A stretch of DNA of 64,000 nucleotides from Dehalococcoidales bacterium (GCA_020342155.1 CP070842.1:555930-619929); one strand, 5' to 3'; shown: positions 35,260 to 56,505, numbered from the stretch's first letter. The notes: generated from the letters alone by a model not told the origin. Numbers and translations: made by a program.

Positions 35260-35351
35260 ATGCACACATTGCGTAACGGCATAATGGGTCAGGTGTGCAG
35301 TCTGGAATGGGTCTCGTGGCGGATGAACGTGCCTCTGCCTGATGGTAACCT
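35260..35351 (+). promoter_or_regulatory. Conserved promoter/operator module, copy C5 (-35 ATGAAC 35323..35328; TGn-TAACCT -10 at 35346..35351)
   Basis: Shares blocks ATGCACACATTGC / GTCAGGTGTGC / GGAATGGG / CGTGGCGGATGAAC and the exact 17-nt spacer with the copies at 46935, 49477 and 56410. Lies 16 nt upstream of the fdnH-like ATG. Confidence 0.65.
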
Positions 35352-35366
35352 GATTAATGATACATC

Positions 35367-36221
35367 ATGAGTGATAAAGCTATCCTTTTCAACACCACCA
35401 GATGCATTGCGTGTCGCGGTTGCCAGGTGGCCTGCAAGCAGTGGAATGAGACAGACGAGGTGATTCCCACTGAACAGAACAGCGTACGATCAGTAAACCG
35501 TGGCAGTTATGAAAATCCCCCGGACCTCTCACCAAAGACTTGGATGACGATTAAATTCATTGAGAAACCGCAGGGCGATTCCATAGAGTGGTTTTTCAAT
35601 CGTCGTAGCTGTATGCATTGTACTGAGGCTGCCTGTGTCGAGGTGTGCCCCTCTGGGGCTCTTTATCACAACGAAGATGGGTTTGTCACCTATGATAAAG
35701 ATAAATGTACAGGCTGTGGTTATTGTGAGCAATACTGCCCGTTTGATGTTCCTCGATTAGACACAAATATTGTCACAGGCGTGGGTAAAATGGACAAGTG
35801 TACTCTCTGCACGACCCCAAGCCTCAATCGTCTCTCGGCAGGTGAAGAACCTGCGTGTGTCAATACCTGTCCCACTCACGCTCTAGTCTTCGGTGATAGG
35901 GACGAGCTTATCTCCGAAGCTAAAACACTGGTCACCGGTCTGCAGACAACCGGCTCTAGGGTCTATCCCAAGGCAACGCTTTACGGAGAACAGGAACTCG
36001 GTGGCCTCCACGTTCTTTATGTTCTGACAGACTCGCCTGGAGTCTACGGCTTGCCAGAGAATCCTCAGTTCCCTATCGCGGCCACACTCCAGAGAGATGT
36101 CTTCCGTCCCCTTACTAAGGTGGTGTGGCTCATGGTCGCTGGTGGCCTGGCACTGAACGTCTTGATTGCCTGGTTCAGGCAGAGGCAACTTAGTGAGGAG
36201 AACTCTCATGGAAATGATTGA
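35367..36221 (+). CDS. fdnH: FdnH/HybA-like 4x[4Fe-4S] electron-transfer subunit with C-terminal TM anchor
   Basis: CIACRGCQVACKQWN, CMHCTEAACVEVCP, CTGCGYCEQYCP, CTLC...CVNTCP; C-terminal hydrophobic helix. Confidence 0.85.
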   Translation: MSDKAILFNTTRCIACRGCQVACKQWNETDEVIPTEQNSVRSVNRGSYENPPDLSPKTWMTIKFIEKPQGDSIEWFFNRRSCMHCTEAACVEVCPSGALYHNEDGFVTYDKDKCTGCGYCEQYCPFDVPRLDTNIVTGVGKMDKCTLCTTPSLNRLSAGEEPACVNTCPTHALVFGDRDELISEAKTLVTGLQTTGSRVYPKATLYGEQELGGLHVLYVLTDSPGVYGLPENPQFPIAATLQRDVFRPLTKVVWLMVAGGLALNVLIAWFRQRQLSEENSHGND

Positions 36222-36861
36222 ACGCTATACACGAGCAGCGAGATGGTTTCACTGGCTTATTGCCATCGTATTTTTTGAGATGGCACTGTCAGGGCTACTC
36301 ATCTTTCTCCCCTGGGTTCCTTCAGGCACGATAGGCATGTGGACTCGACTTATCCACCGTATTGGCGCAGTGTTTCTCGTTGGCGCTCCGGCAATATTCA
36401 TGCTTTTTGCCTGGCAACGTTCATGGGATTTCATTAAGGAAGCATTCACCTGGGGTAAAGAAGACCTCGAATGGCTGCGAGCCGCACCAGGCTACTATTT
36501 TGGCGGTGACCCGAGGATGATGCCACCCCAGGGTTATATTAACACCGGGATGAAGCTATACCGAATATCTATCATCCTCGGTGGTGGCGTATTTCTTATT
36601 ACGGGATTTATCATGACATTTCTCAGGGGAATTGTACCTCCGGCGGTCTTCCAGTGGTGCCTCGTCCTGCACGATGTCACCTTTATCGTGGCTATCGGTA
36701 TGTTCCTTTTGCACTTTCAACTCGGCGTTTTTCACCCTAGAATGGATGAGTCTCTCTTGTCTATGTTCGATGGCAAGGTCTCAGGTGTCTACGCCAAGTC
36801 CCACCATGGCAAGTGGTATGACGGAGTTAATAATAGAGATGACGATAACTCCTCCGAATAA
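36208..36861 (+). CDS. fdnI: FdnI-like di-heme cytochrome b membrane subunit
   Basis: RYTRAARWFHWLIAIVFF..LSGLLIF, 4 TM with conserved His. Start set at ATG 36208 (GAGGAG upstream), overlapping fdnH-like by 14 nt. Confidence 0.7.
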   Translation: MEMIERYTRAARWFHWLIAIVFFEMALSGLLIFLPWVPSGTIGMWTRLIHRIGAVFLVGAPAIFMLFAWQRSWDFIKEAFTWGKEDLEWLRAAPGYYFGGDPRMMPPQGYINTGMKLYRISIILGGGVFLITGFIMTFLRGIVPPAVFQWCLVLHDVTFIVAIGMFLLHFQLGVFHPRMDESLLSMFDGKVSGVYAKSHHGKWYDGVNNRDDDNSSE

Positions 36862-36898
36862 ATACTGGAGTCCTGATTCTGGGTAAGCATTCTACTGA

Positions 36899-37798
36899 TT
36901 GCAGACTCGAATCGCTGCGCAGGAGCAGACAGTGACGAACACCTGGCATGATACAGTCAGGAACTATATTGAGATACTAAAGCCTCGTGAGACCAGCCTG
37001 ATAGTCTTAATCGGTGCTTGTGCTGCAGTACTGGCCGGAGACGGGCATCCTCCATTGGACAGACTGGTGCTTGTTCTGGTAGCACTGCTCTTTGCCAGCG
37101 CCGGTGCCAATGGGTTAACCAACTACCTGGACCGTCATATCGATGCCAAAATGCAACGCACCAGACATAGAGTTTTACCGTCAAAACGCATCCACCCCGC
37201 AGAAAAGGTGTTACCACTAATACTAAGCCTGTTCATTGCCGGCCTGAGTCTGGCATGGTACCTGCACTTTTTTTGTTTTCTAGCCGGCTTGGGGGGCACA
37301 CTAGCAGCCATCGTGTGGCGCAAACGGTGGACGTGCGTCTTTCCGCAAGGCGTACTTGCTAGCTGTGCCCCCGCCCTGGCTGCATGGTTCGCTATTAGAG
37401 CAAGCCCCAGCTGGTTACTGATATCGCTATGCCTGGTTATCGCCATCTGGGTACCACTGCATCTCTGGAGTATCATGATAACCTGGCGGGACGACTATCT
37501 TGGCGCCGGAATATCTTTCTTTCCGTTGAACCTCAAGACAGACGAGGCAGCCAAAATTCTGGTAGGGCTCAGCCTACTTCTGTACAGCGCTTCTATCGCC
37601 GCTTGTTTTATAAGTAAATCCTCATGGATATCTGTGGTGATGGTCAATCTGATGGGTATTATACTGGTCTATACCAGCATACGGCTGGCTACTTCAATCT
37701 CTTCAAAGCGCTCCTGGAGACTGTATAAACTATCTGCTTTTCCCTACATGGGTTTGGTATTCATGGCTATGTGCCTGGATACTTTGGTGCGAGGTTGA
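36899..37798 (+). CDS. UbiA-family prenyltransferase (heme O synthase CtaB/CyoE-like)
   Basis: YIEILKPRET..., NYLDRHIDAKMQRTRHRVLPSKRI Asp-rich motif, ~8 TM. TTG start is uncertain. Confidence 0.65.
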   Translation: MQTRIAAQEQTVTNTWHDTVRNYIEILKPRETSLIVLIGACAAVLAGDGHPPLDRLVLVLVALLFASAGANGLTNYLDRHIDAKMQRTRHRVLPSKRIHPAEKVLPLILSLFIAGLSLAWYLHFFCFLAGLGGTLAAIVWRKRWTCVFPQGVLASCAPALAAWFAIRASPSWLLISLCLVIAIWVPLHLWSIMITWRDDYLGAGISFFPLNLKTDEAAKILVGLSLLLYSASIAACFISKSSWISVVMVNLMGIILVYTSIRLATSISSKRSWRLYKLSAFPYMGLVFMAMCLDTLVRG

Positions 37799-37895
37799 AG
37801 AGGCACGGCTGCGTTTACTCTGGGATAGCTCGGCTAAATGTACCACACTGAGTCTACGTATCACGTATAACCCTAGGAATTATTAGAGGGAAAAA

Positions 37896-38690: not shown

Positions 38691-38805
38691 AATGAAGGCG
38701 GCTCAGTGAATATCTCATGATGTACCTCATGTTTTTACTGCTTCCATCCGCTCGATTACCTGAAATCGAGCGGGAACCCTCATTTTTATTGAGGCAAGCT
38801 CGACC

Positions 38806-39036
38806 ATGGGATTAGAATGGATTCTTCAACTGGTGCTATTTGGTGTACTTCACTGGGCATTGGCAGCATTGCTGTTGCAGGACCTGGCCAACAGAAAGCA
38901 GGTAGTGGGGAAGCGAAAAGCACCATGGGCGATAGCTATAATGTTCGTCACCTTTGTTGGGTCACTGGTATACATGCTATGTCATCCCCGGGTCTTCTTA
39001 GAAGATGACACCGATGAGAACAATACCGAGCGATGA
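38806..39036 (+). CDS. Small PLDc_N-domain-like membrane protein
   Basis: 76 aa, two TM, ...KAPWAIAIMFVTFVGSLVYML pattern. Confidence 0.55.
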   Translation: MGLEWILQLVLFGVLHWALAALLLQDLANRKQVVGKRKAPWAIAIMFVTFVGSLVYMLCHPRVFLEDDTDENNTER

Positions 39037-39097
39037 CTATTTGAGCGAAGTGCAGTCTTTCTCTTGGTCGGAGATGGCGATCTGTCTTGATACCAAC

Positions 39098-40768
39098 TCA
39101 TGTCACCTGCTTTGGCAATACTACTTTAATAGATGTCCCCCTACCTGGCTCAGACAACATCTTCAGGCTTCCACCCAGCAATCGTACCCTTTCCTGCATC
39201 CCCACCAGGCCGAGTTTACCCAGAGGAGCGAGGTCAGCCACTCGCTCTGGTAATTCGAAGCCCTTGCCGTTATCTCTAATAGTTAAGAGTGTACTGTCGT
39301 CACCATACTCTAGCACGACCCAGGCTTGCGATGCCTCGGAATGCTTCCAAACATTTCTCAACGCCTCTTGTGCTATGCGGAACAAGACCAGCTCTACCTC
39401 AGGGGCAAAACGATTGACCGAACCTGTTACTTGCACCTCGATAGCTATCCCGAAATGCTGTTCCAGATCGGAAGCCAGCCATTCTAAGGCTGGTACCAGT
39501 CCCAAGTCATCCAGTATTGATGGTCGCAGGTCCTGACTGAAACGTCGCACCCCTTCCAGTGCCTTGTCCGCCTGTTGTCGGAGTTCCTCTAATAACACCA
39601 TGTCCTGTGATGATAAGCCCTTGCCACCGGCAATAAAAATATCCAACCGTCGTGAGAGAGCTACTAAATCCTGAGCAGTCTCATCATGAAGCTCCCGGGC
39701 AATACGCCTTCGCTCTTCTTCCTGTGCCCTAGTTACCTGCTGAAGATAGAAAGTTAGGCTCTCTCGCATCTGCTTCTCCTTCTCCGCATCGCTGGCAATC
39801 TGCTCTGCCATTATGCGCTGATTATAATAGAGACGGGCATTATCCACAGCTACCCCAATGTGACTGGCAATATGAGAAAGGAGTTCTACATCCTCCTGTA
39901 CAAACTCGCGAGGACCACGAGTGGCCACACATAGTGTACCCGTAACCCTGCCTTCGGCCTTCAGCGGAGCAATTATCTCAGCCCGGATACCATCCTTCCT
40001 GACCACCTCTCTGGTCAGCCTGGGATCAGCAGAGGTGTCCTTAACTACCAATGACTCACCCGTCTGGGCAACCTGCCCGTTGAACCCTTCGCCCACCTTC
40101 AGCCTGCTTAGTTCCGCCACCAGCTCCTCAGAGACTCCAAGGTGTATTTTAGGTTCAAGCCCTTGGGTTTTTTCATCCAGCAGGAAAGCCAGGACCACCT
40201 CCACATCCATTACTTCTGCGACCTTGTCTGCAGCAGCGTGCAGGATAGCCTCTAACTCCAGGGATTGACCAAGAACATCTGAAACCTCGTTTAAAGCAGC
40301 CAATCGTCTCTCGTTTTTCTGTATGGACTCGAGATACGACTGCAGTTCACCCTGGGCTACTGCCAATTTTTGCAGTGCCAGTTGAGTGCGGTTTTTCTCT
40401 CTTCTGTAGAGCTCAAACCACAGGTTTACTAACCCACCGACAATTATTACAGCACAGACCTCCACTACAGCATCGCGTGAGACTGTCGAAATCAATATAG
40501 CGCGAGGCAACATAATGGCCAGAGCCACTGTAGTAGCAGCCAGAAATCCCCGCATACCAAAGATAAAGGATGCATAGGAAATGGGTAAAAGAAAAAGGAT
40601 TCGCTCAAGGGCATGCCGGGTCAGACCTAACGCTGGTGAGATAGACGGTAGCAGGGATTCTTCAGGATAGTGAAAGATGGCTCCGATGACAAACATCACC
40701 GTCAAAATCCACAAGTGGATACCCATGACTAAAATACGTCGATTCGCTGATTCTGGTTCTTCTCTCAC
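39098..40768 (-). CDS. Sensor histidine kinase (LPRAILIS TM module + GAF + HisKA_3 + HATPase_c)
   Basis: ARELHDETAQ H-box (NarX/DegS type), GAF-like central region, C-terminal ATPase motifs. Confidence 0.9.
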   Translation of the reverse strand: MREEPESANRRILVMGIHLWILTVMFVIGAIFHYPEESLLPSISPALGLTRHALERILFLLPISYASFIFGMRGFLAATTVALAIMLPRAILISTVSRDAVVEVCAVIIVGGLVNLWFELYRREKNRTQLALQKLAVAQGELQSYLESIQKNERRLAALNEVSDVLGQSLELEAILHAAADKVAEVMDVEVVLAFLLDEKTQGLEPKIHLGVSEELVAELSRLKVGEGFNGQVAQTGESLVVKDTSADPRLTREVVRKDGIRAEIIAPLKAEGRVTGTLCVATRGPREFVQEDVELLSHIASHIGVAVDNARLYYNQRIMAEQIASDAEKEKQMRESLTFYLQQVTRAQEEERRRIARELHDETAQDLVALSRRLDIFIAGGKGLSSQDMVLLEELRQQADKALEGVRRFSQDLRPSILDDLGLVPALEWLASDLEQHFGIAIEVQVTGSVNRFAPEVELVLFRIAQEALRNVWKHSEASQAWVVLEYGDDSTLLTIRDNGKGFELPERVADLAPLGKLGLVGMQERVRLLGGSLKMLSEPGRGTSIKVVLPKQVT

Positions 40769-40796
40769 AGCATCTCCAGTGTATCTACGTATGAAG

Positions 40797-41459
40797 TCAG
40801 GATATGTCCTCTAGGCTGAACCACCCCTCTTTTAACCCTCGTAGAATGGCCTCAGTGCGTGAGCCGACCCCTAATTTATCGAAGATACGGGCGAGGTGAC
40901 CCTGTACAGTTCGGACGCTGAGATAGAGCTTATCAGCAATATCGCCGTTGCTCAGACCTTTGGCTGCCAGCATGAGTACTTCAAGCTCTCTCTCAGTAAG
41001 GGATGCAGGAGCAACCTGACCAGCCCCCTGCTTGGATGGCATGAAACGCCGCAGGACCTTGCTCGCAATTGCCGGATGAAGCACTGACTCGCCATGATAA
41101 ACCGAGCGAATTGCCTCTACCAGTTCAGAGCCACGTACATTCTTCAACAGGTAACCAGCCGCTCCCGCCTCGAGGAGGCTGAAGACATATCTGTCATTGT
41201 CATATACTGTCAGGACCAGCACGGCAGTGGAAGGAACAGCCTCCTTCAGTCGCCTGGTGGCTTCGATGCCATTAAGCTTTGGCATAGCAATATCCATAAT
41301 GGCGACATCGGGTTTGAGTCTGATGACTTGCTCAACAGCCTCTTCACCATCGCCTGCCTCGGCTACCACCTCCATGTCGCTTTCGGCTTCAAGGACCCGG
41401 CGGGTACCCTCACGGACTATAGCATGGTCATCAGCCAGCAATATTCTGATCTTCTCCAT
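40797..41459 (-). CDS. NarL/LuxR-family response regulator
   Basis: MEKIRILLADDH...GEAGDGEEAV...MPKLNG; LuxR HTH LTERELEVLMLAAKGLSNGDIA. Confidence 0.9.
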   Translation of the reverse strand: MEKIRILLADDHAIVREGTRRVLEAESDMEVVAEAGDGEEAVEQVIRLKPDVAIMDIAMPKLNGIEATRRLKEAVPSTAVLVLTVYDNDRYVFSLLEAGAAGYLLKNVRGSELVEAIRSVYHGESVLHPAIASKVLRRFMPSKQGAGQVAPASLTERELEVLMLAAKGLSNGDIADKLYLSVRTVQGHLARIFDKLGVGSRTEAILRGLKEGWFSLEDIS

Positions 41460-43468: not shown

Positions 43469-46400
43469 TTAAGCCCTCCTTATGTTGCATAGGAAGGTCT
43501 TGTACTCCGGGATGGTAGTGTTAGCATCGCCGACGTGCGGAGTAAGAATATTACCGCTATCGCCCTTAGCCATACCGCTGTATCCAAAGTGCCAGATTAC
43601 GCCGATGTGGTAAATGGTCTTGCCACCCACCGTCAGCGGCGGGAAGCGTTTGGTCACGATGGCCACGGCGCTAATCTCTCCCCGGGCAGTACTGACTGTC
43701 ACCATGTCTCCGTTCTCAATACCCTTGTCTGCGGCCAGTTCTTCACCCATCTCTACATACATATTGGGCATGAGCTCCACCAGCCAGGGGAGGTTCCTCG
43801 TCATGATGCCGGTCTGCCAGTGTTCGGTGCAGCGGTATGTGGTGCCCACATAAGGATACTGCTCAGGTGTTCCCTGCTGATTGCGATATGTGCCGATAAA
43901 GGAGCAGGGATTAATCTTGGTGCCCGACATCAGGTTTTCATCCAGAGGGCTTTCCCAGGGCTCATAAACCTCCGGCACTGGCCCCTCGGCCAGGCCGTAA
44001 CCCCAGAGACGTGCCACCCCTTCCGGTTTCATAATAAAGGGGAGGTACTTTGCCCCGTTCCCGGCTTGGTTGATTGGAGGCCAGCCCCCATCGGCGATAT
44101 CGCCCTGCCATTTCCCCTGACCGTACGAGATGACCGGGTGTTCACTGTCCCAGGGCACCCCATCAAGGTCAACCGAAGCCCGGTTATAGATAATACGTCG
44201 GTTGACCGGCCAGCACCAGGCCCAGTTGGAATACAGACCGATTTGCTGGGGATGCGTATCCACCGGGTCAGTTTTCTTGGCCTTATTGCCGTCTGTCTCG
44301 GTATACATGTTACAGTAGAGCCAGTTTCCCGAACTGGTAGTACCATCATCCTTGAGGGAGCCGAAGCTGGCCATCAACTGGCCGGTTGAGTCATAGCCGT
44401 TTATCTCTCTTGCTACCGCATCGGCCGTGATGTGGCTCCCATAGTCCCAGTCCAGCTCCACGACTGGCTTCGCCAGCGGACGGCTGTCCGCCTGATAAAG
44501 CTCTTTCAGCTTCAGCATAACCAGGTTCATAATCTCAAGGTCAGGCATTGCCTCTCCCGGAGCTTCCACCGCTTTATAGCGCCATTGTGCCCAGCGGCCG
44601 CTGTTAGTGATGCTCCCCTCCTTTTCGTAAGAGCAGGCCGCCGGGAGGATGAATACCTCGGTCTTGATATCAGCCGGTGCAACCCCAGGTCTCTTCCAGA
44701 ACTCGGCTGTCTCGTTCATCCATATATCAGCGGCGACCAGCCAGTCCAGGTTTGCCAGAGCAGCACGCGCCCCGTTAGAATTGGGGCCACCCGATGCCGG
44801 GTTCTGTCCCCAGTTCCAGAGTCCCTTAATTGTGCCCTGACCCATCGCCTCAATCATCCCGATGTGAGTGTAATTCAGACTGGGGTCACGTTTCGGCAGG
44901 TAGTGAAAACAGAAATCATTACTTTGGGTAGCCGCATTGCCGTACCAGGCTTTGAGCAGGCTCACCACATACTTCTTGTAGTTGCCCCACCAGTTGGCAC
45001 TGGTGTCTCCGGCGAGGCCCTGAGGCGTGATGGTTGACGGGCGAGCTCGTCTGAGGTAGTCCTCAAGGTCAGCGTCACCCTCTACCGGAGCCACCAGGTA
45101 CCCTGGCAAGATGTGGCTTAGCAGACACATGTCAGTCGACCCCTGGACATTGGAGGTGCCACGTAGAGCGTTGATACCGCCTCCAGAAACACCCATGTTG
45201 CCCAGCAGGAGCTGGAGTATGCCATAGGCCCTGATATTCTGGGTGCCATAGGTATGCTGGGTAGCCCCCATAGCATACATGATGGTACCAGCCTTACCTC
45301 GCTGTCCGGTAGCACTGTATGTCCGGCATATCTCCCGATAAACATCCTTGGGGGTGCCGGTAATATTACAGACGGTATCGATGTCGTAGCGGGAGAAGTG
45401 ATTCTTAAGCAGTTGGAAGACACAGTTTGGGTTTTCTAGGGTGGGGTCTGTGTCTGGAGTGGCGGTATCGGCATATTGCCAGCTCCCCCTAGATGCGGCT
45501 GTGTACTTGCCATCCTCCACTTCACCAAAAAGCCCATCATGAAAGACAAATTCCTGATTGACGATAAAGGAGGCATTGGTGTACTGGATGATATATTCCA
45601 TATTGTAGTTGGCAGGATTATCCGCAATGTCATCGAGTACGTATTTTATCATTCCACCGATGAAGGCGATGTCTGTACCCGACCTCAGAGGTGCATAGAT
45701 ATCGGCCTTAGATGATGTCCGGGTGAAACGCGGATCAACATGGATAAGCTTGGCCCCCCTGGCCATTGCTTCCGACACCCACTTGAAGGATATAGGGTGG
45801 TTCTCCGCGGCATTAGAGCCAATTATCATGATGCAGTCGGCATTTTGGATATCAATCCAGTGATTGGTCATGGCCCCTCTACCAAAACTCTCCGCCAAAC
45901 TGGCGACGGTAGAGGAGTGTCAGAGCCGGGCACAGTGCTCTAGATATACCACTCCCAGTGCCCGGTTCATCTTGGCAAGCAGATAACACTCTTCGTTGTC
46001 CAGTTCACCACCGCCAAGGCAAGCAATCGCGTCAGTCCGGCCCATTGCTTCATTCCAAGACGCGTCACGGGTAGACTTGACCCTCTGGGCGATGGTATTT
46101 ATCATCCAGCCCCAAGACTTCTCCTCCCAGTCAGCCGAGTTCGGTGCCCGGTACAGGGGCGTGGTTAGGCGGTACGTGTTAGGTTTGCCATTTACTTGGT
46201 GAATCTGGGCCATAGCCAGCCCCTTGGGGCAGAGTGACCCCTCGTTGACGGGATGGTCAGGGTTCCCCTCTATCTTGATAATGCCATCCTCATAGTCGGC
46301 TACAATGGCCCCGCAACCAACCGAGCAGTAGCAGCAGATGGTGGCTGTCTCTTTGACCCTTGTCTTTAGCTGCAATTCCTTAGGAGCAGCAATTACAATC

Positions 46401-46483
46401 CCTTTCGTGTCAAAGGTGAGCACCGCTGCGGCACCGATTCCCGCCCCCGAGAACTTCAGAAAGTCTCTACGGTTTAGTCTCAC
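43469..46483 (-). CDS. fdnG: Tat-exported, selenocysteine-containing formate-dehydrogenase-type molybdopterin subunit (FdnG-like); in-frame TGA at 45920..45922
   Basis: ORFs 45920..46483 and 43469..45898 are in the same frame (3015 nt). RRDFLK Tat motif and CCYCSVGCG [4Fe-4S] motif. Junction reads EHCARL-TGA-HSSTVASLAESFGRGAMTNHW, the conserved Sec/Cys active-site context. A hairpin follows the TGA. Confidence 0.85.
45876..45922 (-). promoter_or_regulatory. UGA(Sec) codon plus putative SECIS hairpin
   Basis: mRNA reads UGA-CACU-CCUCUACC-G-UCGCC-AGUUU-GGCGG-AGAGUUUU-GGUAGAGG. The 8-bp lower stem and 5-bp upper stem start 4 and 13 nt after the UGA. Confidence 0.55.
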
Positions 46484-46609: not shown

Positions 46610-46849
46610 TTACCACCATTTGTCCTGTGCACCTTTCACGGAAATCCACGTTTTTAACCGGTTATCCAGCTTGCCGACCCATGACTCTATCTTCGCGACA
46701 TCACCCCTTACCAGGGCTGTCATTTCCTCTGGGGTCAAATCATACTCCTGCAATACCTTGTAAGGATTCTCCACCAACCGGGCAAGAAATTTTTGGTCGC
46801 TGGCAGCTCTGGATAATATATCTATAATTACCTTTCGATCCGGTGGCAC
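46610..46849 (-). CDS. Small helical protein of unknown function (LigA-subunit-like motif), first gene of the FDH operon
   Basis: 79 aa, GTG start with GGAGGA 9 nt upstream. ...FLARLVENPYKVLQEYDLTPEEMTALVRGD resembles the LigA-like small-domain family (weak, from memory). Confidence 0.4.
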   Translation of the reverse strand: MPPDRKVIIDILSRAASDQKFLARLVENPYKVLQEYDLTPEEMTALVRGDVAKIESWVGKLDNRLKTWISVKGAQDKWW

Positions 46850-46868: not shown

Positions 46869-46921
46869 ATGCCAGCAAACCATAGCTCGCTTATTTTTAG
46901 CTAACGACGTTCTGCTGGCAT
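46869..46921 (-). other. 5'-leader hairpin (9-bp perfect stem ATGCCAGCA/TGCTGGCAT, 35-nt internally paired loop) ending 4 nt before the SD of 46610..46849
   Basis: Arms at 46869..46877 and 46913..46921. Lies between the predicted TSS (~46928) and the GGAGGA. Confidence 0.4.
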
Positions 46922-46934: not shown

Positions 46935-47058
46935 AGATTAACACCAGGTAAAAAGTGGTTCATCCGCCACGAGGCCCATTCTCCCGAGTACACCTGGCTC
47001 ATTCTATGACTAAGCAATCTGTGCACATTGAAAGCCATCAGCAATATCGTCTGGGTCT
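46935..47058 (-). promoter_or_regulatory. Conserved promoter/operator module, copy C1 (-35 ATGAAC 46958..46963; TGT-TAATCT -10 46935..46940)
   Basis: About 85% identical to copy C2 over ~125 bp, with an exact 17-nt spacer. Drives the small-protein/Sec-FDH/NrfD/RR/HK operon. Confidence 0.65.
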
Positions 47059-47219: not shown

Positions 47220-49046
47220 CTATTTCATAGCTTTCTTTAAATCCTGGTCGATCCAGAGATACTTTACGGAGCCGGCATAGTTGTAGTAACCGACAGCATA
47301 TGTACCATAGTAGTTCTTTACCCACGGCCACCAGATCATGTAGTAATCCGGGACCACCGAGGGGATACAGTATGCCTGCTCGAGGAGCCACGGCATCAGT
47401 TCACGGTGGATTCTCATCATTTCGGCATCGTTGGTACCGGCGTACTGTTTTATCTCCGCATAAGCATCTTCAATCTCGGGTACACTGTAGTCCTCATTGA
47501 TATAGCTGACGTTGTAAGCACCCGGACCCCTGTAATTAATCATCTTCATGTAGGTACCATTACCAGCGGGAGTGATGTACATAATCTCGTAGGCGGTGTG
47601 GTTCCTGGCACGAGCCCGCGTGCTGTAGTCAGTGTAATCATGAATATCGAGTTGCATGTCGATGTTGATATCCGCCAGCATCTCCTGATACATGGAGAGG
47701 ATGTCTATCATTGCGGGCGTATTCCAGCAGATGACACTGCAGTCGAAACCCTCGGAGTAAGCAGTCTGGTCCAGTTTCGCCTGGGCTGCTGCTATGTCCG
47801 CTGGTCCATAGAACGCCTGGACATCCTCGGGCAGTTCCTCCAGGGGCATGTGGGCAGCCTTGTACTCGGTGGTGGGTGTTACCGGCCAAGTCACTAACTC
47901 ACCCGAGCCTTCCCAGTACTGGTCCCTTATCAGCGGTTGGTCTATGGCCAGCATCATCGCTTGCCTGACCTCTTTTACGCTGAAGGGTGACTCCGGCAGG
48001 TCTGTTCTGAAGAACATGCAGTTAGCCATATCGTAGAGGTAAGTCTTATATTCTATATCACTCATCTTGGGATCAGTAACAATGGGCTGGGCATCATTGT
48101 AGTTAATCAACTGCATGACGTCAAGCTGTTTGGAGCGAAAAGCTGCTTCCCTGACGGAGGGATCCGTGATGACCAAAGACTTGATTTTGTCTACATAGGG
48201 CAAGCGGTTTCCCTTACCCGGGCCGATGGGGTCGGTTTCCCAGTAGTCCGGGTTCTTAATGTAGGTGATCTGGCTGCTGGGTACGTAGTCGGATAGTATG
48301 AATGGCCCGGTGCCGACGACATTTTGCCAGTCTGACTCACCTCCGTATAGATCAATCACCTCGGGTGCTACGATTGACATGTAGTCGGGTATCAGGGTTA
48401 CCAGGTTAACCCACTGGTCTGCGGGAACTGTGACAGTTACCGTCCGCGCAATATTATCAACTGTTACCTCCGCGGTCCGACTCATTGTGGCATAAAAGTA
48501 CGCGAAATACCCCGTGGACATTGCCCTCTCTATGCTAAATCCGACATCTTCAGGCGTCAGTAGTCGGCCGTTTACCGGTGGCTTGTTCTGCCATCTGACC
48601 CCCTCGCGGATGTGGAAGACGATTGTCCCGAGTTCAGGTATTGTCCAGCTATCTGCCAGACAGCCGATCTTCAGGTCCATGCGATTATCGCCGCCATTGA
48701 TAAAATCAGACTCGCCTGTGCCTGCCGGTCCCTTTGTCCAGTCACCCTGCAATAGCTCATTATGGGTCATTTTAGAGCTGCCAACATAGACGTGACCTCC
48801 GTAGTTAGGCGGAAGTACTTCGTCAAAATACGGGGGATCCGCGGTCCGGGGGTATACGAATTCACCCCCATACTGCGGTACGCCATCGTCTCCTTCCTCC
48901 TCTTCTTCCTCCTCTTCTTCCTCCTCTTCTTCTTCCTCCTCTTCTTCCTCCTCCTGCTCACCAGGTCCTGTTCCATCGCAAGACCACGCCACCAGGGTCA
49001 ATACCATGATACAACTCAGAGATATCCATAAGAATTTTCTCTTCAC
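47220..49046 (-). CDS. Family-5 (DppA/OppA-type) ABC substrate-binding lipoprotein with a poly-Glu linker
   Basis: Signal peptide with lipobox-like LVAWSC, run of 20 Glu, then YGGEF..., ...NPDYWE... typical of SBP_bac_5. GTG start with AGGAGA upstream. Confidence 0.85.
   Translation of the reverse strand: MKRKFLWISLSCIMVLTLVAWSCDGTGPGEQEEEEEEEEEEEEEEEEEEEEGDDGVPQYGGEFVYPRTADPPYFDEVLPPNYGGHVYVGSSKMTHNELLQGDWTKGPAGTGESDFINGGDNRMDLKIGCLADSWTIPELGTIVFHIREGVRWQNKPPVNGRLLTPEDVGFSIERAMSTGYFAYFYATMSRTAEVTVDNIARTVTVTVPADQWVNLVTLIPDYMSIVAPEVIDLYGGESDWQNVVGTGPFILSDYVPSSQITYIKNPDYWETDPIGPGKGNRLPYVDKIKSLVITDPSVREAAFRSKQLDVMQLINYNDAQPIVTDPKMSDIEYKTYLYDMANCMFFRTDLPESPFSVKEVRQAMMLAIDQPLIRDQYWEGSGELVTWPVTPTTEYKAAHMPLEELPEDVQAFYGPADIAAAQAKLDQTAYSEGFDCSVICWNTPAMIDILSMYQEMLADINIDMQLDIHDYTDYSTRARARNHTAYEIMYITPAGNGTYMKMINYRGPGAYNVSYINEDYSVPEIEDAYAEIKQYAGTNDAEMMRIHRELMPWLLEQAYCIPSVVPDYYMIWWPWVKNYYGTYAVGYYNYAGSVKYLWIDQDLKKAMK
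48894..48953 (-). repeat. 60-nt GAA/GAG microsatellite-like tract encoding 20 consecutive Glu
   Basis: Plus strand reads (ttc/ctc)x20 with a partial 12-nt periodicity. Confidence 0.9.
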
Positions 49047-49476: not shown

Positions 49477-49600
49477 CAGATTAGCACTGGGCTAAAAGTG
49501 GTTCATCCGCCACGATACCCATTCTACCGGGCACACCTGGCCGAATATACCTAAGCAATCTGTGCACATTGAAAGCCATCAACAATATCATCCAGGCTTT
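49477..49600 (-). promoter_or_regulatory. Conserved promoter/operator module, copy C2 (-35 ATGAAC 49500..49505; TGC-TAATCT -10 49477..49482)
   Basis: Same blocks and the same 17-nt spacer as C1, C3 and C5. Points toward the small ORF and SBP gene, and is divergent from the RR2-HK2 promoter. Confidence 0.65.
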
Positions 49601-49614: not shown

Positions 49615-49643
49615 TTTGAACTGTTCTTCGTGTCGGTGTACAA
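49615..49643 (+). promoter_or_regulatory. Sigma-70 promoter TTGAAC-N17-TACAAT for the RR/HK operon at 49687
   Basis: Hexamers at 49615..49620 and 49638..49643, 43 nt upstream of the ATG. Confidence 0.5.
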
Positions 49644-49686
49644 TTAGTTCGGTGTATTACACGATAACTAGAATGGTGGTCGGTCT

Positions 49687-50364
49687 ATGGACAAGATAAA
49701 GGTCGTTATTGCTGATGACCATGTACTCTTTCGTGAAGGAACCCGCAACCTTATTGAGCAAGAACCGGACCTGGAAGTCATCGGAGAAGCCGGCGACGGT
49801 GAGGAGGCTGTCAGGCTAGTAACTCAGCTCCACCCCCACGTCGCTTTAGTCGATATTGCTATGCCTAAAATCAATGGCATCGAAGTAACAAGACAGATGA
49901 AAGTTCACTGCCCCGCAACAGCAGCCCTAATCCTCACTGCTTATGATGATGACCCGTACGTGTTCGCCTTGTTGGAGGCTGGAGCTGCCGGTTATCTGCT
50001 CAAGAATGTCAGTGGAAAGGAACTCGTCAATGCCATTCGGGCAGTACATGACGGCGAGGCTGTACTCCACCCGACCATTGCTGAAAAGGTCTTTAGACGG
50101 ATTGCCACTTCAACACCGAAGCCGGAGGCTGCATCTCAAGTTAACGACCTTAGCGAGCGCGAAATGGAGGTGTTAAAACTGGCGGCAAAAGGGATGCATA
50201 ACCAAGATATTGCAGATAGACTCTATCTCAGCAGGCGAACAGTTCAATCTCATCTGACAAACATCTTTCAGAAGATGAATGTAGGCTCCAGAACCGAGGC
50301 AATAGTGCAAGCCTTTGGTAGGGGTTGGCTTACTCTGGATGACATTGTCGAGGAGCTGCCATAG
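49687..50364 (+). CDS. NarL/LuxR-family response regulator
   Basis: MDKIKVVIADDH...GEAGDGEEAV...MPKING; LuxR HTH. Confidence 0.9.
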   Translation: MDKIKVVIADDHVLFREGTRNLIEQEPDLEVIGEAGDGEEAVRLVTQLHPHVALVDIAMPKINGIEVTRQMKVHCPATAALILTAYDDDPYVFALLEAGAAGYLLKNVSGKELVNAIRAVHDGEAVLHPTIAEKVFRRIATSTPKPEAASQVNDLSEREMEVLKLAAKGMHNQDIADRLYLSRRTVQSHLTNIFQKMNVGSRTEAIVQAFGRGWLTLDDIVEELP

Positions 50365-50376: not shown

Positions 50377-51843
50377 GTGAAACAAACACTCAGGCAGACA
50401 CTAAAGGTCCCTCATCTGTGGATTATACTCGCCATCATGGCTTTTGGGTCTATCGTCTACTACGCAGACCAGATTCCAATACTTGATGACATCGTATCGC
50501 AGGCACCAATACAGCTAGCCCGCTACTCAACGCACCGAATCCTGTCCATCATCCCAGTAGCATATGCAGCTTTTATTTTCCGGTTTCGAGGTGGAGCTAT
50601 CATCGCCACCGTTGTGAGCCTTGGCCTCCTGCCTCGGGCTTTGTTCATATCGTCACAAAGGCCCGAAGCATTGGCAGAAACAGTTGCTTTCTTCGCCATG
50701 GGTGTTTTCGTTAGCTGGCTAATTGACCGACAGCAGCAGTCCCTACGTCGATTGGAGAACACTCAACTGGAACTCATGGCATCACTCAAGACAGTCCAAG
50801 ACCAGCAGTACCAGTTGCAACTTTCCGAAGAGCGTTACCGAGGCTTATTTGAGAACGCTGGTGAAGCCATCTTTGTATGTTCTACCGATGGCGAGATTAC
50901 CTCGGCTAATAATGCCTGTGAACTGCTCACCGGGTATGACTACGACAGCCTGATAGCTACAACCATCTATGAGCTCTTTTCAGGAGAAGGTAAAGAAACA
51001 GTGAGGAGAATCTTCTCGGAGGGACTCGGCGGGAGAACCATCAGCGGGACTGATGAGCTTAGTTTAGCGAGAAAAGATGGGTCAGAGGCATTTATCAGGC
51101 TTGCCGTAAGTCCCTTGCCCAGCGGGAATCAGACAATTGCTTTGCAGGCCATCGCGACAGACGTCACCGAGGAAAGACGACTACGGAGTAATATGGAGTA
51201 CTACATTACCCAAATAACCAGAGCACAGGAGGACGAACGTCTGCGCATCTCCCGGGAACTTCACGATGATACAGCCCAGGTACTGGCCGGGCTATCCCGT
51301 GATATTGCCTCACTCACCACAGATGAAAGCATACTGCCACAGAACGTAGTAGAGGATTTGAAGACATTGCGCGAAACAGCCAACTCCATGCTGGAGGGAG
51401 TTCGACGTTTCAGTCAGGACCTCAGGCCCTCTATTCTGGATGACCTGGGTCTGGTCCCAGCACTTGAGTGGCTTCTCGATAATATAGAGAAGCAGCACGA
51501 TATTAAAACCGGGATCAGCATTACCGGGAACCAGCGCCGTCCGGTGCCAGAAAAGGAGTTGATTATTTTCCGTGTTGCACAGGAGGCGCTCAGCAATGTG
51601 AGAAGGCATTCTAATGCTTCGACCGTCGAGATGAGCATTGATATCGATGAGGCGGCATTGACACTCATCATAAGTGATAATGGTAGGGGCTTCGATATAC
51701 CGCAAAGAGCCAGCGACCTGGTTCAGTCTGGCAAACTGGGTATCGTGGGCATGAGGGAGAGAGCACGCCTTGTCGGCGGTACCCTGATTGTCCAATCAGA
51801 GTCTGGAAAGGGCACTACAGTAACTCTAAGAGTGCCTGAGTGA
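50377..51843 (+). CDS. Sensor histidine kinase (LPRALFIS TM module + PAS + HisKA_3 + HATPase_c)
   Basis: SRELHDDTAQ H-box, PAS (SEERYRGLFENAGEAIFV), N-terminal TM module shared with three other proteins. Confidence 0.9.
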   Translation: MKQTLRQTLKVPHLWIILAIMAFGSIVYYADQIPILDDIVSQAPIQLARYSTHRILSIIPVAYAAFIFRFRGGAIIATVVSLGLLPRALFISSQRPEALAETVAFFAMGVFVSWLIDRQQQSLRRLENTQLELMASLKTVQDQQYQLQLSEERYRGLFENAGEAIFVCSTDGEITSANNACELLTGYDYDSLIATTIYELFSGEGKETVRRIFSEGLGGRTISGTDELSLARKDGSEAFIRLAVSPLPSGNQTIALQAIATDVTEERRLRSNMEYYITQITRAQEDERLRISRELHDDTAQVLAGLSRDIASLTTDESILPQNVVEDLKTLRETANSMLEGVRRFSQDLRPSILDDLGLVPALEWLLDNIEKQHDIKTGISITGNQRRPVPEKELIIFRVAQEALSNVRRHSNASTVEMSIDIDEAALTLIISDNGRGFDIPQRASDLVQSGKLGIVGMRERARLVGGTLIVQSESGKGTTVTLRVPE

Positions 51844-51856
51844 GTATTAAAACTTC

Positions 51857-51902: not shown

Positions 51903-51944
51903 GAGTCCCGGACAATAGGCGACTACTGCGGTCTGATAGTCCCC

Positions 51945-52178: not shown

Positions 52179-52240
52179 TTTATACACCTCCTTCTGTACC
52201 TCTTTTATCTATCAGATGGGCACTTTAGGCTCTCCTTAAC

Positions 52241-52414: not shown

Positions 52415-52745
52415 GGCTAACACCTCCTTTCCTGATTTCCTTTCATTGGAGGCAAGGGTGAAGCGATGAAACTGAACCGAAGGGAATTCCTCGTTTTTCC
52501 TTTCCTCTTACCTCCACTGCTACTCTATCATTCGGTTATCAATCCTGACTTCCGTCGGACTACTCATTCCCTGCCTTATCTCTATCCCGAAGAACACACA
52601 GATATACTTGCCTTGATAGACACAATATACCTAGATAAAAGGGGGGGAACTGGGTTGAAATACCTACATGCCAAGGTAGATATGAGTCTTGTTGCCGAGT
52701 ATTGGCCGGGGTATCATGGAAATGAAAGAGATAAGGAGGGTACCA

Positions 52746-53411
52746 TTGGGTGGAATCCGAATCCTAATAGCTGATGACCATGTTGTCGTACGCGAGGGCA
52801 CTCGACGGGTGCTGGAGCAGGAACCGGACTTGACTGTTGTTGGCGAGGCTGGCGACGGAGAGGAAGCAGTCCGACTCACTGGCGCCTGCAACCCCGATGT
52901 TGCCATAATTGATATCAATATGCCCAGCGTCGACGGCATTAAAGCCACCGAACAGATAAAGACGCTATATCCCTCTGTCGCCGTGTTGATATTGACAGCC
53001 TATGACGACGACCAATTCATATTCCGCCTCTTAGAGGTCGGTGCAGCCGGCTACCTCTTGAAAAGCATACGGGGTCAGGAACTGATTGATGCGGTACGGG
53101 CTGTTTATGCTGGCGATTCAGTCCTTCACCCTTCTATCGCACGGAAGGTACTGAAACGTTTCCATCCCGAAACCGGAGAAATTATCGAACAGAAACCGCC
53201 TGATTTTCTAACAGAGCGTGAAATACAGGTGCTTATGCTGGCAACCCGAGGCCAGAGCAATCAGGAGATTGCTAATGAACTCTGTCTGAGTCTCCGTACC
53301 GTTCAGACGCACCTGGGTAATATCTTCAACAAGCTTCAGGTTGGCTCACGAACCGAAGCCGTGGTACGTGCCCTGAAACATGGCTGGATTACGCTTGAAG
53401 ATATACCCTGA
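52746..53411 (+). CDS. NarL/LuxR-family response regulator
   Basis: GIRILIADDH...GEAGDGEEAV...MPSVDG; LuxR HTH. Start placed at TTG 52746 (AAGGAGG 6 nt upstream), matching the N-termini of the paralogs; the ORF is open from 52689. Confidence 0.85.
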   Translation: MGGIRILIADDHVVVREGTRRVLEQEPDLTVVGEAGDGEEAVRLTGACNPDVAIIDINMPSVDGIKATEQIKTLYPSVAVLILTAYDDDQFIFRLLEVGAAGYLLKSIRGQELIDAVRAVYAGDSVLHPSIARKVLKRFHPETGEIIEQKPPDFLTEREIQVLMLATRGQSNQEIANELCLSLRTVQTHLGNIFNKLQVGSRTEAVVRALKHGWITLEDIP

Positions 53412-53446
53412 GGGTAAGGTTTAAAGAAAATAGTCGGGTATTAAAC

Positions 53447-54898
53447 ATGCAACGCTGGTCGGCATCAGATAGACTGAAAAGAATCGCTACTAAACCACAG
53501 TCGTGGTTTATACTGGCTTTACTTGTGTTGCTAACTGTTCCGCACTATGGGGACGCTATCAAACAGCCGGAATTCCTAACCAACGTATTAACCAACCTCG
53601 GAGTAACCCGCCATGCCTTTGAAAGAATTCTATACCTCGCACCAATAGTTTGGGCCAGTTTTCTTTTTGGCTGGAGAGGAGCCGTCTTAACCTCAACAGT
53701 TGCACTCGGATGCATGCTGCCCCGTGCTATTTTTATCTCGCCTAGTCCGTTGGATGCGATACTGGAAACGAGTGCCGTTTTTATACTCGGTAACGTACTG
53801 GCTATTGGCTTCGAATCACTCCGGAGAGAACGACAGCGCCGGACTGAATTAGAGGTAACACAGCACGAATTGGCAGCATCTGAACAAAGGTATCGGGCAT
53901 TATTCGAGAACGCACACGATGCTATCTGGGTCCAGGATATGGAAGGCAACATACTCGCTGCCAATGAAGCAACGGCAAAACTAACCGGCTACGCGGTAGA
54001 CAACCTTGCGCGGATGAATGTAACGGATTTCCTATCACAGGAAGGCCTAGAACTTGCCAGGAAAATACGACATCAGCTCCTCGAAGGGGAGACTCTTCAG
54101 GGAGCATACGACCAGAGTATAATCAAGAAAGACAGGACGGAGGCACTCCTACGCTTAAGTTCAAACTTGCTTCATCAAGATGGCGAACCAGTAGTTATTC
54201 AGCATATCGCGCGAGATATTACCGAGGAGAAACGGCTGCATGAGAACCTACGTTTTTATTTACACCAGGTCACCAGGGCTCAGGAAGAGGAGAGAAAACG
54301 TATATCATTAGAACTACATGACGAGACCATTCAGGCGTTGGTCGTTTTGTCCAGGCAACTGGATGAACTCGCCTCTAATGGTAGAAATATCTCTGACGAA
54401 AGTCGGCTTTGCTTGGAGGAATTACGAGAACAGACCAACAACACCATGCAAGGAGTACGTCGCCTGAGTCAGGATTTGCGGCCGGCTGCCCTAGACCGTC
54501 TCGGTCTTTTGGCTGCACTGGAACGGCTCGCCACCGACACCTCAGAATACTCTGGAATAGCCACCAGCATCAACGTAGTCGGTAGCGAACGTCGCCTTGA
54601 CGAAGAAGTGGAGCTAGTACTTTTCCGTATCACCCAAGAAGCGCTAAGAAATGTGTGGCGACACTCTCAGGCAACCAAGGCCGAAATCATGGTCCAGTTT
54701 GAAGAAGATGGAACGAGAATAACTATCAGGGACAACGGTAAGGGCTTCCATACCCCGCAACTGATGGGGGACCTTGCTAAAGATGGTAAACTTGGCTTGG
54801 CCGGGATGGAAGAGCGTGCCCGTCTTGTAGGAGGCTCACTCAAAGTGCAGTCTCAGCCATGTATTGGGACCACCTTAACAGTAGAGCTACCAATATAG
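53447..54898 (+). CDS. Sensor histidine kinase (LPRAIFIS TM module + PAS + HisKA_3 + HATPase_c)
   Basis: SLELHDETIQ H-box, PAS (SEQRYRALFENAHDAIWV). Confidence 0.9.
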   Translation: MQRWSASDRLKRIATKPQSWFILALLVLLTVPHYGDAIKQPEFLTNVLTNLGVTRHAFERILYLAPIVWASFLFGWRGAVLTSTVALGCMLPRAIFISPSPLDAILETSAVFILGNVLAIGFESLRRERQRRTELEVTQHELAASEQRYRALFENAHDAIWVQDMEGNILAANEATAKLTGYAVDNLARMNVTDFLSQEGLELARKIRHQLLEGETLQGAYDQSIIKKDRTEALLRLSSNLLHQDGEPVVIQHIARDITEEKRLHENLRFYLHQVTRAQEEERKRISLELHDETIQALVVLSRQLDELASNGRNISDESRLCLEELREQTNNTMQGVRRLSQDLRPAALDRLGLLAALERLATDTSEYSGIATSINVVGSERRLDEEVELVLFRITQEALRNVWRHSQATKAEIMVQFEEDGTRITIRDNGKGFHTPQLMGDLAKDGKLGLAGMEERARLVGGSLKVQSQPCIGTTLTVELPI

Positions 54899-54919
54899 CT
54901 ACTAGGAAGCATTGTCTTG

Positions 54920-55852
54920 TTACTTCGTCTCGGCACCGGGAGCCTTCACAAGAAGTAGAGGTTTGTTTCCCCTGTGCAGTACCTTCTCACCGACACTGCC
55001 GAAAACCCAGTGACCTACACTGGAGCGTTTGTTAATCGACATGGCTATCATATCAGCCCCGATGCCGTTAGCGAAATCGATGATTTCTTCGGCTGCATTA
55101 CCCGGTTTGACTTCAAGTCCTAGCGTCATACCATTCTCGTTCAGTTGCTTTCCGATACGTTCAAGGTAGTCCTCAGCGGGAATCTCGGCAGATGCTATCT
55201 GTTGTTCACGGTCTATGGTATATTCATACCCCTTGGTAGTGATAGTGTGGTAACTACCAGCCAACACTTGAAAAAGAACCACTTCCGCCCCTAGTCCGGA
55301 AGCAAGCCAGGCTACATGTGGAATCACCGCCTCGCTTTCTCGAGAACCATCCAGGGGCACTACTATCCTTTTTAATATTCCCTGCTCTGGTGCTGTACGA
55401 TGTCTCTCTTTAGCTCTAACGAGCATGATCGGTTTTTCTATAACCTTAATTACTCTATTGGCAACGCTTCCCAAGACCCAACGAGTGACACCTGAGTGTC
55501 CGTGAGTTGCCATTACAACAAGGCTAATTTCATCCTCCGCAGCGCAGTCTATGATTCCCTCGGCGGCCGTACTGCGTTTGAGATCAAGTGTTACAGCAAT
55601 ACCTTTCTCTTTAAGTCGGTCACGAACCTTTTCCAGGTACAAGCTAGCACTTGATTCTGAAGCAACTGTTTGCTCTAATGAGTAAGCTACTTCAATCGAT
55701 TCTGTATACACGTTATACATGTTCAAAGTAACCACTCTAAGCAATTTGATACCAGTACCGAGCTTGACTGCCAGCTCTTCAGCATAGGGTAGCACTACCT
55801 CAGCCAGTTCCGAACCGTCTAGAGGTACAAGTATTTCCTTATCCACGCTCAC
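54920..55852 (-). CDS. Tandem-domain universal stress protein (2x UspA)
   Basis: Two repeats of ILVPLDGS...ADMIAM/LVVMATHGHSG...GSV..KV. Confidence 0.85.
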   Translation of the reverse strand: MSVDKEILVPLDGSELAEVVLPYAEELAVKLGTGIKLLRVVTLNMYNVYTESIEVAYSLEQTVASESSASLYLEKVRDRLKEKGIAVTLDLKRSTAAEGIIDCAAEDEISLVVMATHGHSGVTRWVLGSVANRVIKVIEKPIMLVRAKERHRTAPEQGILKRIVVPLDGSRESEAVIPHVAWLASGLGAEVVLFQVLAGSYHTITTKGYEYTIDREQQIASAEIPAEDYLERIGKQLNENGMTLGLEVKPGNAAEEIIDFANGIGADMIAMSINKRSSVGHWVFGSVGEKVLHRGNKPLLLVKAPGAETK

Positions 55853-56154
55853 CCTCCCGATGTCTTTTTTCTCGAAATAGCATCGTATGAAATCAACCAG
55901 ACCTTATAAAAATACAGGATTGAATACGCTATACAGAACCTTGTCAGCCACGCTACCAAATACCTACCGACCAAACCCTACATTCCTGCAGACTGAAGGA
56001 CAATACCTGGCATTATCCTATCAGCATCCCACGAACCGGATAACAGATATAATCAGCTATCCCGCAAAGTATGGGCTTGCAGGTTCCTACAGAATATATT
56101 GTTTTCGTATCGCCTTTCCTTCTTTCTTATCATGATATAATGGGTACTTGACGT

Positions 56155-56340
56155 TTAGACTGCCCCTGATTTCGTGGCGCATACAGGATATGCCTGTAAC
56201 CTCTCCACTCCCGATGATCGCTCAGAATAAGTAATATGCCTCCTATAACCACACTGAAGGCATACTACATCTTTTCCAAGTGAACTCATTTCCAAGAAAA
56301 GGTCACCGTTACACTTGGGACACGCTTTCAACCAAAACAT
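56155..56340 (-). CDS. Small zinc-ribbon protein
   Basis: CPKCNG...CLQCGY; AAGGTGG 9 nt upstream of the ATG; downstream of promoter module C3. Confidence 0.5.
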   Translation of the reverse strand: MFWLKACPKCNGDLFLEMSSLGKDVVCLQCGYRRHITYSERSSGVERLQAYPVCATKSGAV

Positions 56341-56409
56341 AGATATCTACCACCTTAAATCCGACCCACTCGGCAATGACCACATTGATTATCTCCTACT
56401 TATAAATCC

Positions 56410-56505
56410 ACACTAGCACCGATAGGAGTGCCTTTCATCCGCCAACCTGCTCATTCTGGTGAGTGCACGTGGCTGATTCGCTACATAGGTAATGTGTGCA
56501 TTCGG
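56410..56505 (-). promoter_or_regulatory. Conserved promoter/operator module, copy C3 (-35 ATGAAA 56433..56438; TGC-TAGTGT -10 56410..56415)
   Basis: More diverged copy that keeps the blocks GAATGCACACATT / GCCACGTGCAC / CAGAATGAG / TTGGCGGATGAAA and the 17-nt spacer. Confidence 0.55.

Follow-up and report, generated by a model that had tools for sequence, protein, structure and literature searches.

A ~97-bp non-coding module recurs as four gene-oriented copies, c1 to c4, in a 64-kb (64,000-nt) stretch of a Dehalococcoidales bacterium metagenome-assembled genome (MAG). This whole stretch is the window of our analysis, and positions refer to its full length. Read directly and aligned, the copies share three related boxes upstream of -35-like and -10 hexamers, and genes for LuxR/NarL-type two-component regulators lie close by. 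Our data suggest, with a probability of roughly three in four, that the module is a promoter/operator acting at the level of DNA and that the neighboring regulators are the proteins that bind it.

The 23-nt core of the module, GAATGRG-N4-KTGGCGGATGAA, occurs four times in the window, against 0.04 occurrences expected from dinucleotide-preserving shuffles, and block A (TGCACASATTRC) is confined to the same four places. A repeat finder recovered the family independently (D8, D9, D12, I6). An initial annotation of the window had placed four copies at these coordinates and on these strands, with conserved blocks in one order and orientation relative to the downstream gene, and both direct reading and alignment agree with it. 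The weak fifth copy that it suspected at ~52522-52630 does not hold up: the region contains no core match at <=3 mismatches, nhmmer searches with a profile of 18 copies found nothing there at E<=200, and a scan with a single-box position weight matrix (PWM) returned a lone match at noise level (52682-52697). Similarity between c2 and c3 extends further upstream, to 47058, in a segment common to type-II copies only. The copies and their elements lie as follows.

35255..35351, plus strand: c1 module, 5' of the fdnH-like/cytochrome b/UbiA-like operon
35261-35276, 35284-35299 and 35307-35322, plus strand: c1 box 1 (inverted), box 2 and box 3
35323-35328, 35343-35344 and 35346-35351, plus strand: c1 -35-like ATGAAC, TG and -10 TAACCT
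46935..47031, minus strand: c2 module, 5' of the operon of an Os1348-type small protein and fdnG with a putative selenocysteine (Sec) codon, closing with RR1-HK1
47025-47010, 47002-46987 and 46979-46964, minus strand: c2 boxes 1, 2 and 3
46963-46958 and 46940-46935, minus strand: c2 -35-like hexamer and -10 TAATCT
49478..49572, minus strand: c3 module, 5' of an orphan SBP_bac_5 gene and divergent from RR2-HK2
49566-49551, 49545-49530 and 49522-49507, minus strand: c3 boxes 1, 2 and 3
49506-49501 and 49483-49478, minus strand: c3 -35-like hexamer and -10 TAATCT
56410..56506, minus strand: c4 module, 5' of a 12-codon remnant open reading frame (ORF), a zinc-ribbon gene and a tandem-USP (universal stress protein) gene
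56500-56485, 56477-56462 and 56454-56439, minus strand: c4 boxes 1, 2 and 3
56438-56433 and 56415-56410, minus strand: c4 -35-like ATGAAA and -10 TAGTGT

Here RR1 to RR3 and HK1 to HK3 denote the response regulators and histidine kinases encoded near the copies, and numbers beginning with L denote loci on related contigs.

The downstream end of the module has the signature of a promoter. In an alignment of 18 copies, GCGGATGAA and the -10 positions T92, A93 and T97 (TAnnnT) are invariant and T89, the T of a TG dinucleotide, is nearly so, which corresponds to conserved positions T-15(G-14)nT-12A-11nnnT-7. T89 has a frequency of at least 90% across all 18 copies, and G90 reaches that level among the 14 closer ones; exceptions to the TG are L047 (TA) and L056 (TG shifted by one base). 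The four -10 hexamers of the window (TAACCT, TAATCT, TAATCT and TAGTGT) each follow TGn at 17 nt from ATGAAM, as had been annotated. A distance of 17 nt between -35 and -10 holds for 18 copies, and the two copies of L058 have 18 nt instead. Spacer columns hold little information, which peaks at T92, A93 and T97. The combination of constant hexamers and spacing with a variable spacer, read by the initial annotation as the mark of a real promoter, is also kept in distant copies with diverged spacers.

A reference for the strength of this putative promoter comes from the regulator genes themselves, one of which has a predicted promoter back-to-back with c3:

49616..49644, plus strand: divergent RR2-HK2 promoter TTGAAC-N17-TACAAT (predicted)

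The general form TTGAAC(T)-N17-TA(C/A/T)AAT precedes divergent regulator genes in eight loci (the window, L028, L032, L033, L041, L052, L054 and L056), usually ~42 nt before the start codon. The module hexamer ATGAAM matches TTGACA at 3/6 positions, and ATGAAC matches the TTGAAC of the lineage at 5/6, with the single differing base invariant. Since the regulator genes use TTGAAC-N17-TAnAAT, the ATGAAM/TAATCT pair can be read as a sigma-A promoter that is weak by design, with TAATCT as a weakened -10. The same TTGAAC-N17-TAnAAT element is a useful reference for sigma-A promoters of this uncultured Dehalococcoidales lineage. Where the downstream gene is close (L054, L056, L052b and c4), the -10 is followed within 24-38 nt by a good Shine-Dalgarno sequence and a start codon; the divergent intergenic region of L054 totals 176 bp and so has no space for a further promoter upstream of the module. 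Leaders of this length, like the 5' hairpin that begins 13 nt past the -10 (see below), would fit a transcription start 5-9 nt downstream of the -10.

Other promoter assignments were tried and rejected. An alternative -10, TAGAAT at columns 26-31, fails because its first two critical positions are not conserved. For a sigma-54 promoter, a TGGC-N8-TGCA match overlapping block A is present in c2, c3 and L024a, and conservation of the -24 GG breaks down in c1, c4, L028, L046 and L051.

Upstream of the promoter, three related ~16-bp boxes have centers 23 bp apart in an inverted-direct-direct arrangement, with a consensus of about ATrGGCnAnnTGyGC. Box 1 occupies columns 7-22 (reverse complement CTAGGCAATCTGTGCA), box 2 columns 30-45 (ATGAGCCAGGTGTGCC) and box 3, which abuts the -35, columns 53-68 (ATGGGCATCGTGGCGG). 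Profile comparison within the alignment matched box 2 best to box 3 in direct orientation (0.42) and to box 1 in inverted orientation (0.52), with a background of 0.25 +/- 0.07. Boxes 1 and 2 form an imperfect 37-bp dyad in which 69% of cells are complementary (10-48% in slid controls) and six complementary pairs are invariant. The GTGCAC-like sites ~31 bp apart noted in the initial annotation are thus real; more precisely, they form the outer ends of this dyad, the 'GTGCAC' symmetry being a consequence of the inverted distal box; the two-site operator that they had suggested is incomplete, as there are three boxes. In L052b box 1 is missing and boxes 2 and 3 and the promoter are retained.

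Searching 185,579 species genomes for the strict core (too strict a pattern for counting copies per genome) gave 27 matches: one belongs to a complete module of another Dehalococcoidales MAG (L024), and the other 26, in unrelated taxa, are due to chance; a metagenome scan gave five matches, three of them real and from two organisms. When contigs with homologues of the solute-binding protein (SBP), the small protein and FdnH were searched with nhmmer profiles, 20 distinct copies were found in related Dehalococcoidia. Every one (20/20) lies 5' of a gene and in its orientation, with none inside genes, so that the profile check proposed earlier, as run on the window (four copies) and on related contigs (20), yields gene-proximal, gene-oriented copies only. 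More distant SBP homologues in ordinary ABC-transporter contexts (L034-L040) have no module.

The association with regulators is equally consistent, and the earlier observation that NarL/LuxR-type two-component systems sit among the copies extends to all of them: each of the 20 has a Response_reg+GerE regulator and a HisKA_3 kinase within ~6 kb. In eight loci of otherwise differing cargo (c3, L032, L033, L041, L028, L052, L054 and L056) the module lies in the intergenic region of a divergent regulator gene, and in L052b and L058b it lies directly 5' of the regulator gene itself. RR1, RR2, RR3 and the regulators of other loci are ~60-87% identical and have a common recognition helix, LSxRTVQxH, from which that of a fourth regulator in the window (23083) differs.

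The genes behind the copies and the regulators near them, for which searches of Pfam and NCBIfam support the calls of the initial annotation, are listed below.

35367-36221, plus strand: fdnH-like gene, behind c1
36166-36861, plus strand: fdnI-like cytochrome b gene, behind c1
36899-37798, plus strand: UbiA/heme-O-synthase-like gene, behind c1
46610..46849, minus strand: Os1348-family NHLP-clan small protein, 79 aa from a conserved GTG, first gene behind c2
43469..46483, minus strand: formate dehydrogenase-N alpha subunit (FdnG) with a TAT (twin-arginine translocation) signal and an in-frame TGA at 45922-45920, c2 operon
42661-43467, minus strand: HmcB/HybA-like 4Fe-4S protein, c2 operon
41486-42664, minus strand: NrfD/HmcC-like membrane subunit, c2 operon
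40797-41459, minus strand: RR1, LuxR-type, end of c2 operon
39098-40768, minus strand: HK1, GAF + HisKA_3, end of c2 operon
47220..49046, minus strand: orphan SBP_bac_5 solute-binding protein, behind c3 and ~430 nt downstream of its -10
49687-50364, plus strand: RR2, divergent from c3
50377-51843, plus strand: HK2, PAS + HisKA_3, after RR2
52746-53411, plus strand: RR3, convergent with the c4 unit
53447-54898, plus strand: HK3, PAS + HisKA_3, convergent with the c4 unit
56155-56340, minus strand: zinc-ribbon protein, behind c4
54920-55852, minus strand: tandem-USP protein, behind c4

The small protein of the c2 operon matches NF038399 (55 bits, cut-off 40) and its FdnG matches TIGR01553 (1006 bits). 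This small protein and the FeS protein behind c1 are each 100% identical to proteins encoded on one 2.3-Mb contig of a Dehalococcoidales MAG. The in-frame TGA of fdnG falls within the active-site motif CARL*HSSTVASLA, consistent with selenocysteine. The zinc-ribbon/USP gene order behind c4 is also seen behind the c4-type copy of L028.

Taken as a promoter/operator, the module suggests the following mechanism. The paralogous LuxR/NarL-type regulators RR1-RR3, phosphorylated by their PAS or GAF HisKA_3 kinases, would fill the three boxes cooperatively and, from box 3 touching the -35, recruit RNA polymerase to an extended -10 promoter that is poor by itself. The genes for formate dehydrogenase-N, the orphan binding protein and the zinc-ribbon/USP unit would thereby be co-induced, and the regulators may be induced with them. 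Such positive autoregulation is suggested by RR1-HK1, which close the c2 operon, and by regulator genes that also stand behind the module in L046, L051, L052b and L058b. We infer activation over repression because of the position of the boxes and the weakness of the promoter. Promoter activity and the identity of the binding proteins are, like this choice, predictions from sequence comparison.

Several observations weigh against this interpretation. The hexamers match the E. coli consensus TTGACA/TATAAT at just 6/12 positions, for which reason a consensus scan misses the module sites, and the lineage's own -35 is TTGAAC. The boxes known for NarL (TACYYMT in a 7-2-7 arrangement), DosR (TTSGGGACTWWAGTCCCSAA) and ComA (TTGCGG-N4-CCGCAA) are absent from the module copies: NarL heptamers occur as 0-1 isolated matches per copy, which is not beyond chance, the best match to the DosR box has 8-10 mismatches in 20 (as in shuffles), and that to the ComA box 4-6 in 12. 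Near-continuous conservation over ~70 bp exceeds the strict need of three regulator sites, and the single-box PWM is unspecific (42 matches versus 26 in shuffles) and unfit for finding isolated sites. Most copies come from few closely related lineages, so part of their similarity reflects shared ancestry. The fdnH-type copies (c1 and L058a) are the most awkward, with a start codon 14-15 nt after the -10 (in c1 the fdnH ATG is just 15 nt past it); in L058a the Shine-Dalgarno sequence lies between -10 and start codon, implying a 5' untranslated region (5' UTR) of ~7-9 nt. In these copies the module might act inside a read-through transcript from upstream small-protein genes.

Some of these features would also suit a different binding protein. 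The promoter could be the same, with the upstream DNA or the invariant GGCGGATGAA bound by another transcription factor or an alternative sigma factor and the two-component genes being co-regulated cargo. GGCGGATGAA is conserved beyond the need of a -35 hexamer, the boxes are unlike any known NarL-family motif, and RR1-HK1 are themselves c2 targets, so that adjacency to a regulator gene could partly mean regulated, not regulating. Yet a LuxR-type regulator accompanies all 20 copies and is divergent from the module in eight loci with differing cargo, and no other regulator family recurs. TGnTAnnnT is the form of a housekeeping promoter and the -35 of the lineage is nearly matched, and domain searches of the window found no sigma-54 activator domain, ECF (extracytoplasmic function)-type sigma factor or anti-sigma factor in the module neighborhood. 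We therefore consider a binder of another family unlikely.

Action of the module as RNA, whether as a cis-regulatory leader, as an element akin to a riboswitch or as a transcript site bound by protein, appears very improbable. RNAalifold gave a consensus fold of -8.2 kcal/mol for seven copies and -4.8 kcal/mol over 107 nt for 14 copies, with a covariation term of about 0 (-0.2 for the 14 copies). Blocks A and B are partly complementary, but covariation in the dyad (0.048) is not above chance (0.053 in shuffles). Single-copy folding z-scores ranged from -2.0 to +1.1: one copy (L032b, z = -2.0) folds better than its shuffles, but six of seven fall between -1.0 and +1.1, and an Rfam search over the four copies returned nothing at the gathering score nor at E<=1. 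Given the weak consensus fold and the lack of covariation and of an Rfam family, a structured RNA is not supported, and the covariation check envisaged by the initial annotation came out in favor of the promoter/operator reading; the same method detected a real hairpin just downstream, described below. In fdnH-type copies the start codon is near enough for the module to sit in a read-through transcript, and a promoter-like site (TTGGCA-17-TATTGT) lies upstream of c3, but this site is not conserved in orthologues, the distance from module to start codon varies from 14 to ~430 nt, and the linked regulators carry DNA-binding GerE domains, not RNA-binding ones. A hidden small ORF was rejected as well, as most copies have stops in all frames, variation has no 3-periodicity and no ORF is conserved. 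The copies might finally be a selfish or passive repeat (like a miniature inverted-repeat transposable element, or a recently duplicated segment) that regulates nothing, given that the module travels with its first gene and that small-protein and 5'-UTR remnants (see below) show cassette duplication or recombination. This we find barely credible: orientation to the downstream gene is strict in all 20 copies, terminal inverted repeats are absent from them (the sole dyad is internal), no copy on the contigs searched lies inside a gene, only four copies occur in the 64 kb of the window, and the strict core marks a module in one of the 185,579 species genomes. Invariant positions are, moreover, kept where small proteins are just ~60% identical, while spacers and flanks diverge.

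As a promoter/operator, the module is conceptually a standard activator-dependent promoter family, well conserved and with an ordinary regulon signal, and it resembles several known systems. The E. coli fdnGHI promoter is under NarL/NarP control. It shares with the module a formate dehydrogenase-N target, a NarL/FixJ-family activator (predicted for the module) with a HisKA_3 kinase, and several sites upstream of a weak promoter; in contrast, the module has no NarL heptamers (TACYYMT) beyond chance and no FNR-type site, its kinases are cytoplasmic PAS or GAF sensors rather than NarX-type sensors with a periplasmic domain, its boxes are 23 bp apart with the nearest touching the -35, and its host is a Dehalococcoidales bacterium. 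The Mycobacterium DosR/DevR regulon offers a NarL-type regulator with GAF-domain HisKA_3 kinases, tandem-USP targets, multiple boxes of which the proximal one overlaps the -35, and a positively autoregulated regulator operon, but here its 20-bp palindromic Dev box is absent and the cargo serves formate and C1 metabolism. Since NarL and DosR boxes are lacking, the module is not part of those regulons. In multi-site promoters of the NarL family, for example Bordetella BvgA-fha and the tripartite sites of Bacillus ComA, a distal inverted pair is likewise joined by a further direct site reaching the -35, with presumably cooperative activation; half-site sequence and the 23-bp spacing differ, and a ComA-type box is absent from the module.

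To our knowledge, next to no work has addressed gene regulation in uncultured non-dehalogenating Dehalococcoidia, which are not genetically manipulable. A sharply defined cis-element provides a concrete in vitro handle, one that has candidate regulators and, among its predicted targets, a putative selenocysteine formate dehydrogenase-N. The module could reveal how formate/C1 metabolism and stress proteins are controlled in Dehalococcoidia, and with its profile the regulon can be annotated in related MAGs.

On related contigs, the gene that usually comes first after the module encodes the Os1348-type small protein. It heads FdnG-Sec operons (the window, L046, L047 and L051), corrinoid methyltransferase sets with a B12-binding protein, RACo and URO-D-type methyltransferases (L032, L033 and L041), a FocA-type formate/nitrite transporter (L054), an NAD-type formate dehydrogenase of NuoE/NuoF/FdhA type (L056) and a zinc-ribbon/glycosyltransferase/USP unit (L028); the other downstream classes are the orphan SBP, fdnH (c1 and L058a) and the regulator genes themselves (L052b and L058b). 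Together with its small protein, which is 87-89% identical to its counterparts in L032 and L033, c2 belongs to a type found in other loci ahead of corrinoid methyltransferase operons; in L046 and L051, the module before the FdnG operon is of another subtype and the small proteins are only 67-70% identical. L058, in the MAG that also holds L024, contributes the two copies with an 18-nt spacer (12314-12418, minus strand, and 6203-6301, plus strand): one stands directly before an RR-HK(GAF) pair, with the small-protein and fdnG genes missing, and the second stands before two fdnH paralogues, cytochrome b and UbiA.

A conserved RNA structure does occur between module and small-protein gene:

46869..46921, minus strand: conserved two-helix stem-loop in the 5' UTR of the small-protein gene, ~13 nt after the c2 -10

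This stem-loop (19 pairs, -15.8 kcal/mol, covariation term -1.28, three compensated pairs, no Rfam match) serves as an internal positive control for the RNA tools that found no structure in the module. It also occurs downstream of module copies in L024 (~6085-6140), L033, L041, L046 and L051, and degenerate remnants of it lie behind c3, L024a and L058b. Its 3' arm contains an upstream ATG, which makes the conserved GTG at 46849, behind GGAGGA, the probable true start of the small protein. Behind c4, a good Shine-Dalgarno sequence and a 12-codon ORF, MWSLPSGSDLRW (56347-56385, minus strand), ending RW, directly precede the zinc-ribbon gene; L028 has a full 91-aa Os1348-type gene (...TQERW*) at that position, which identifies the c4 ORF as a deletion remnant. 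In L058b just a 5'-UTR remnant of the small-protein gene is left before RR-HK. These remnants behind c4, c3 and L058b indicate that copies arose by cassette duplication or recombination.

A recurrent cassette can be recognized in L054 (5139-6879), L056 (8001-13228), L032/L033/L041 and L046/L051, consisting of a HisKA_3 kinase and LuxR-type regulator, a divergent module, an Os1348-type small protein and cargo that is either formate-linked (FdnG-Sec, a FocA-type transporter or NuoE/NuoF/FdhA-type proteins) or a corrinoid methyltransferase set. There is no maturase for RiPPs (ribosomally synthesized and post-translationally modified peptides) near the small protein, which may point to a role other than that of a precursor. 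It is conceivable, though on balance doubtful, that regulator-kinase pair, module, 5'-UTR hairpin and small protein form a portable cassette recombined before formate/C1 operons, in which the small protein would be an obligatory accessory or feedback part, not a peptide precursor, of an undescribed formate/C1-responsive two-component circuit in Dehalococcoidia.

Several further features of the window were noted. Upstream of c1, tandem paralogous genes (34769-34969 and 34991-35182, plus strand) encode membrane-like proteins of ~65 aa with 88% nucleotide identity over 128 nt, and are followed by a hairpin with a 12-bp stem (35216-35258) that borders directly on block A of c1; two small ORFs also precede the fdnH-type copy of L058, at the equivalent place. 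Within the SBP gene, a direct repeat in the N-terminal part (48886-48962) is CTC/TTC-rich on the plus strand, and its coding strand would give an acidic, Glu-rich low-complexity linker. Three tandem paralogous units of ~1.2 kb at 3519-7013 (70-87% identity; D1-D3, D5) are unrelated to the module. Upstream of c4, at a distance of ~370 nt, Rfam identifies a tRNA gene (56871-56944, minus strand; 72 bits).

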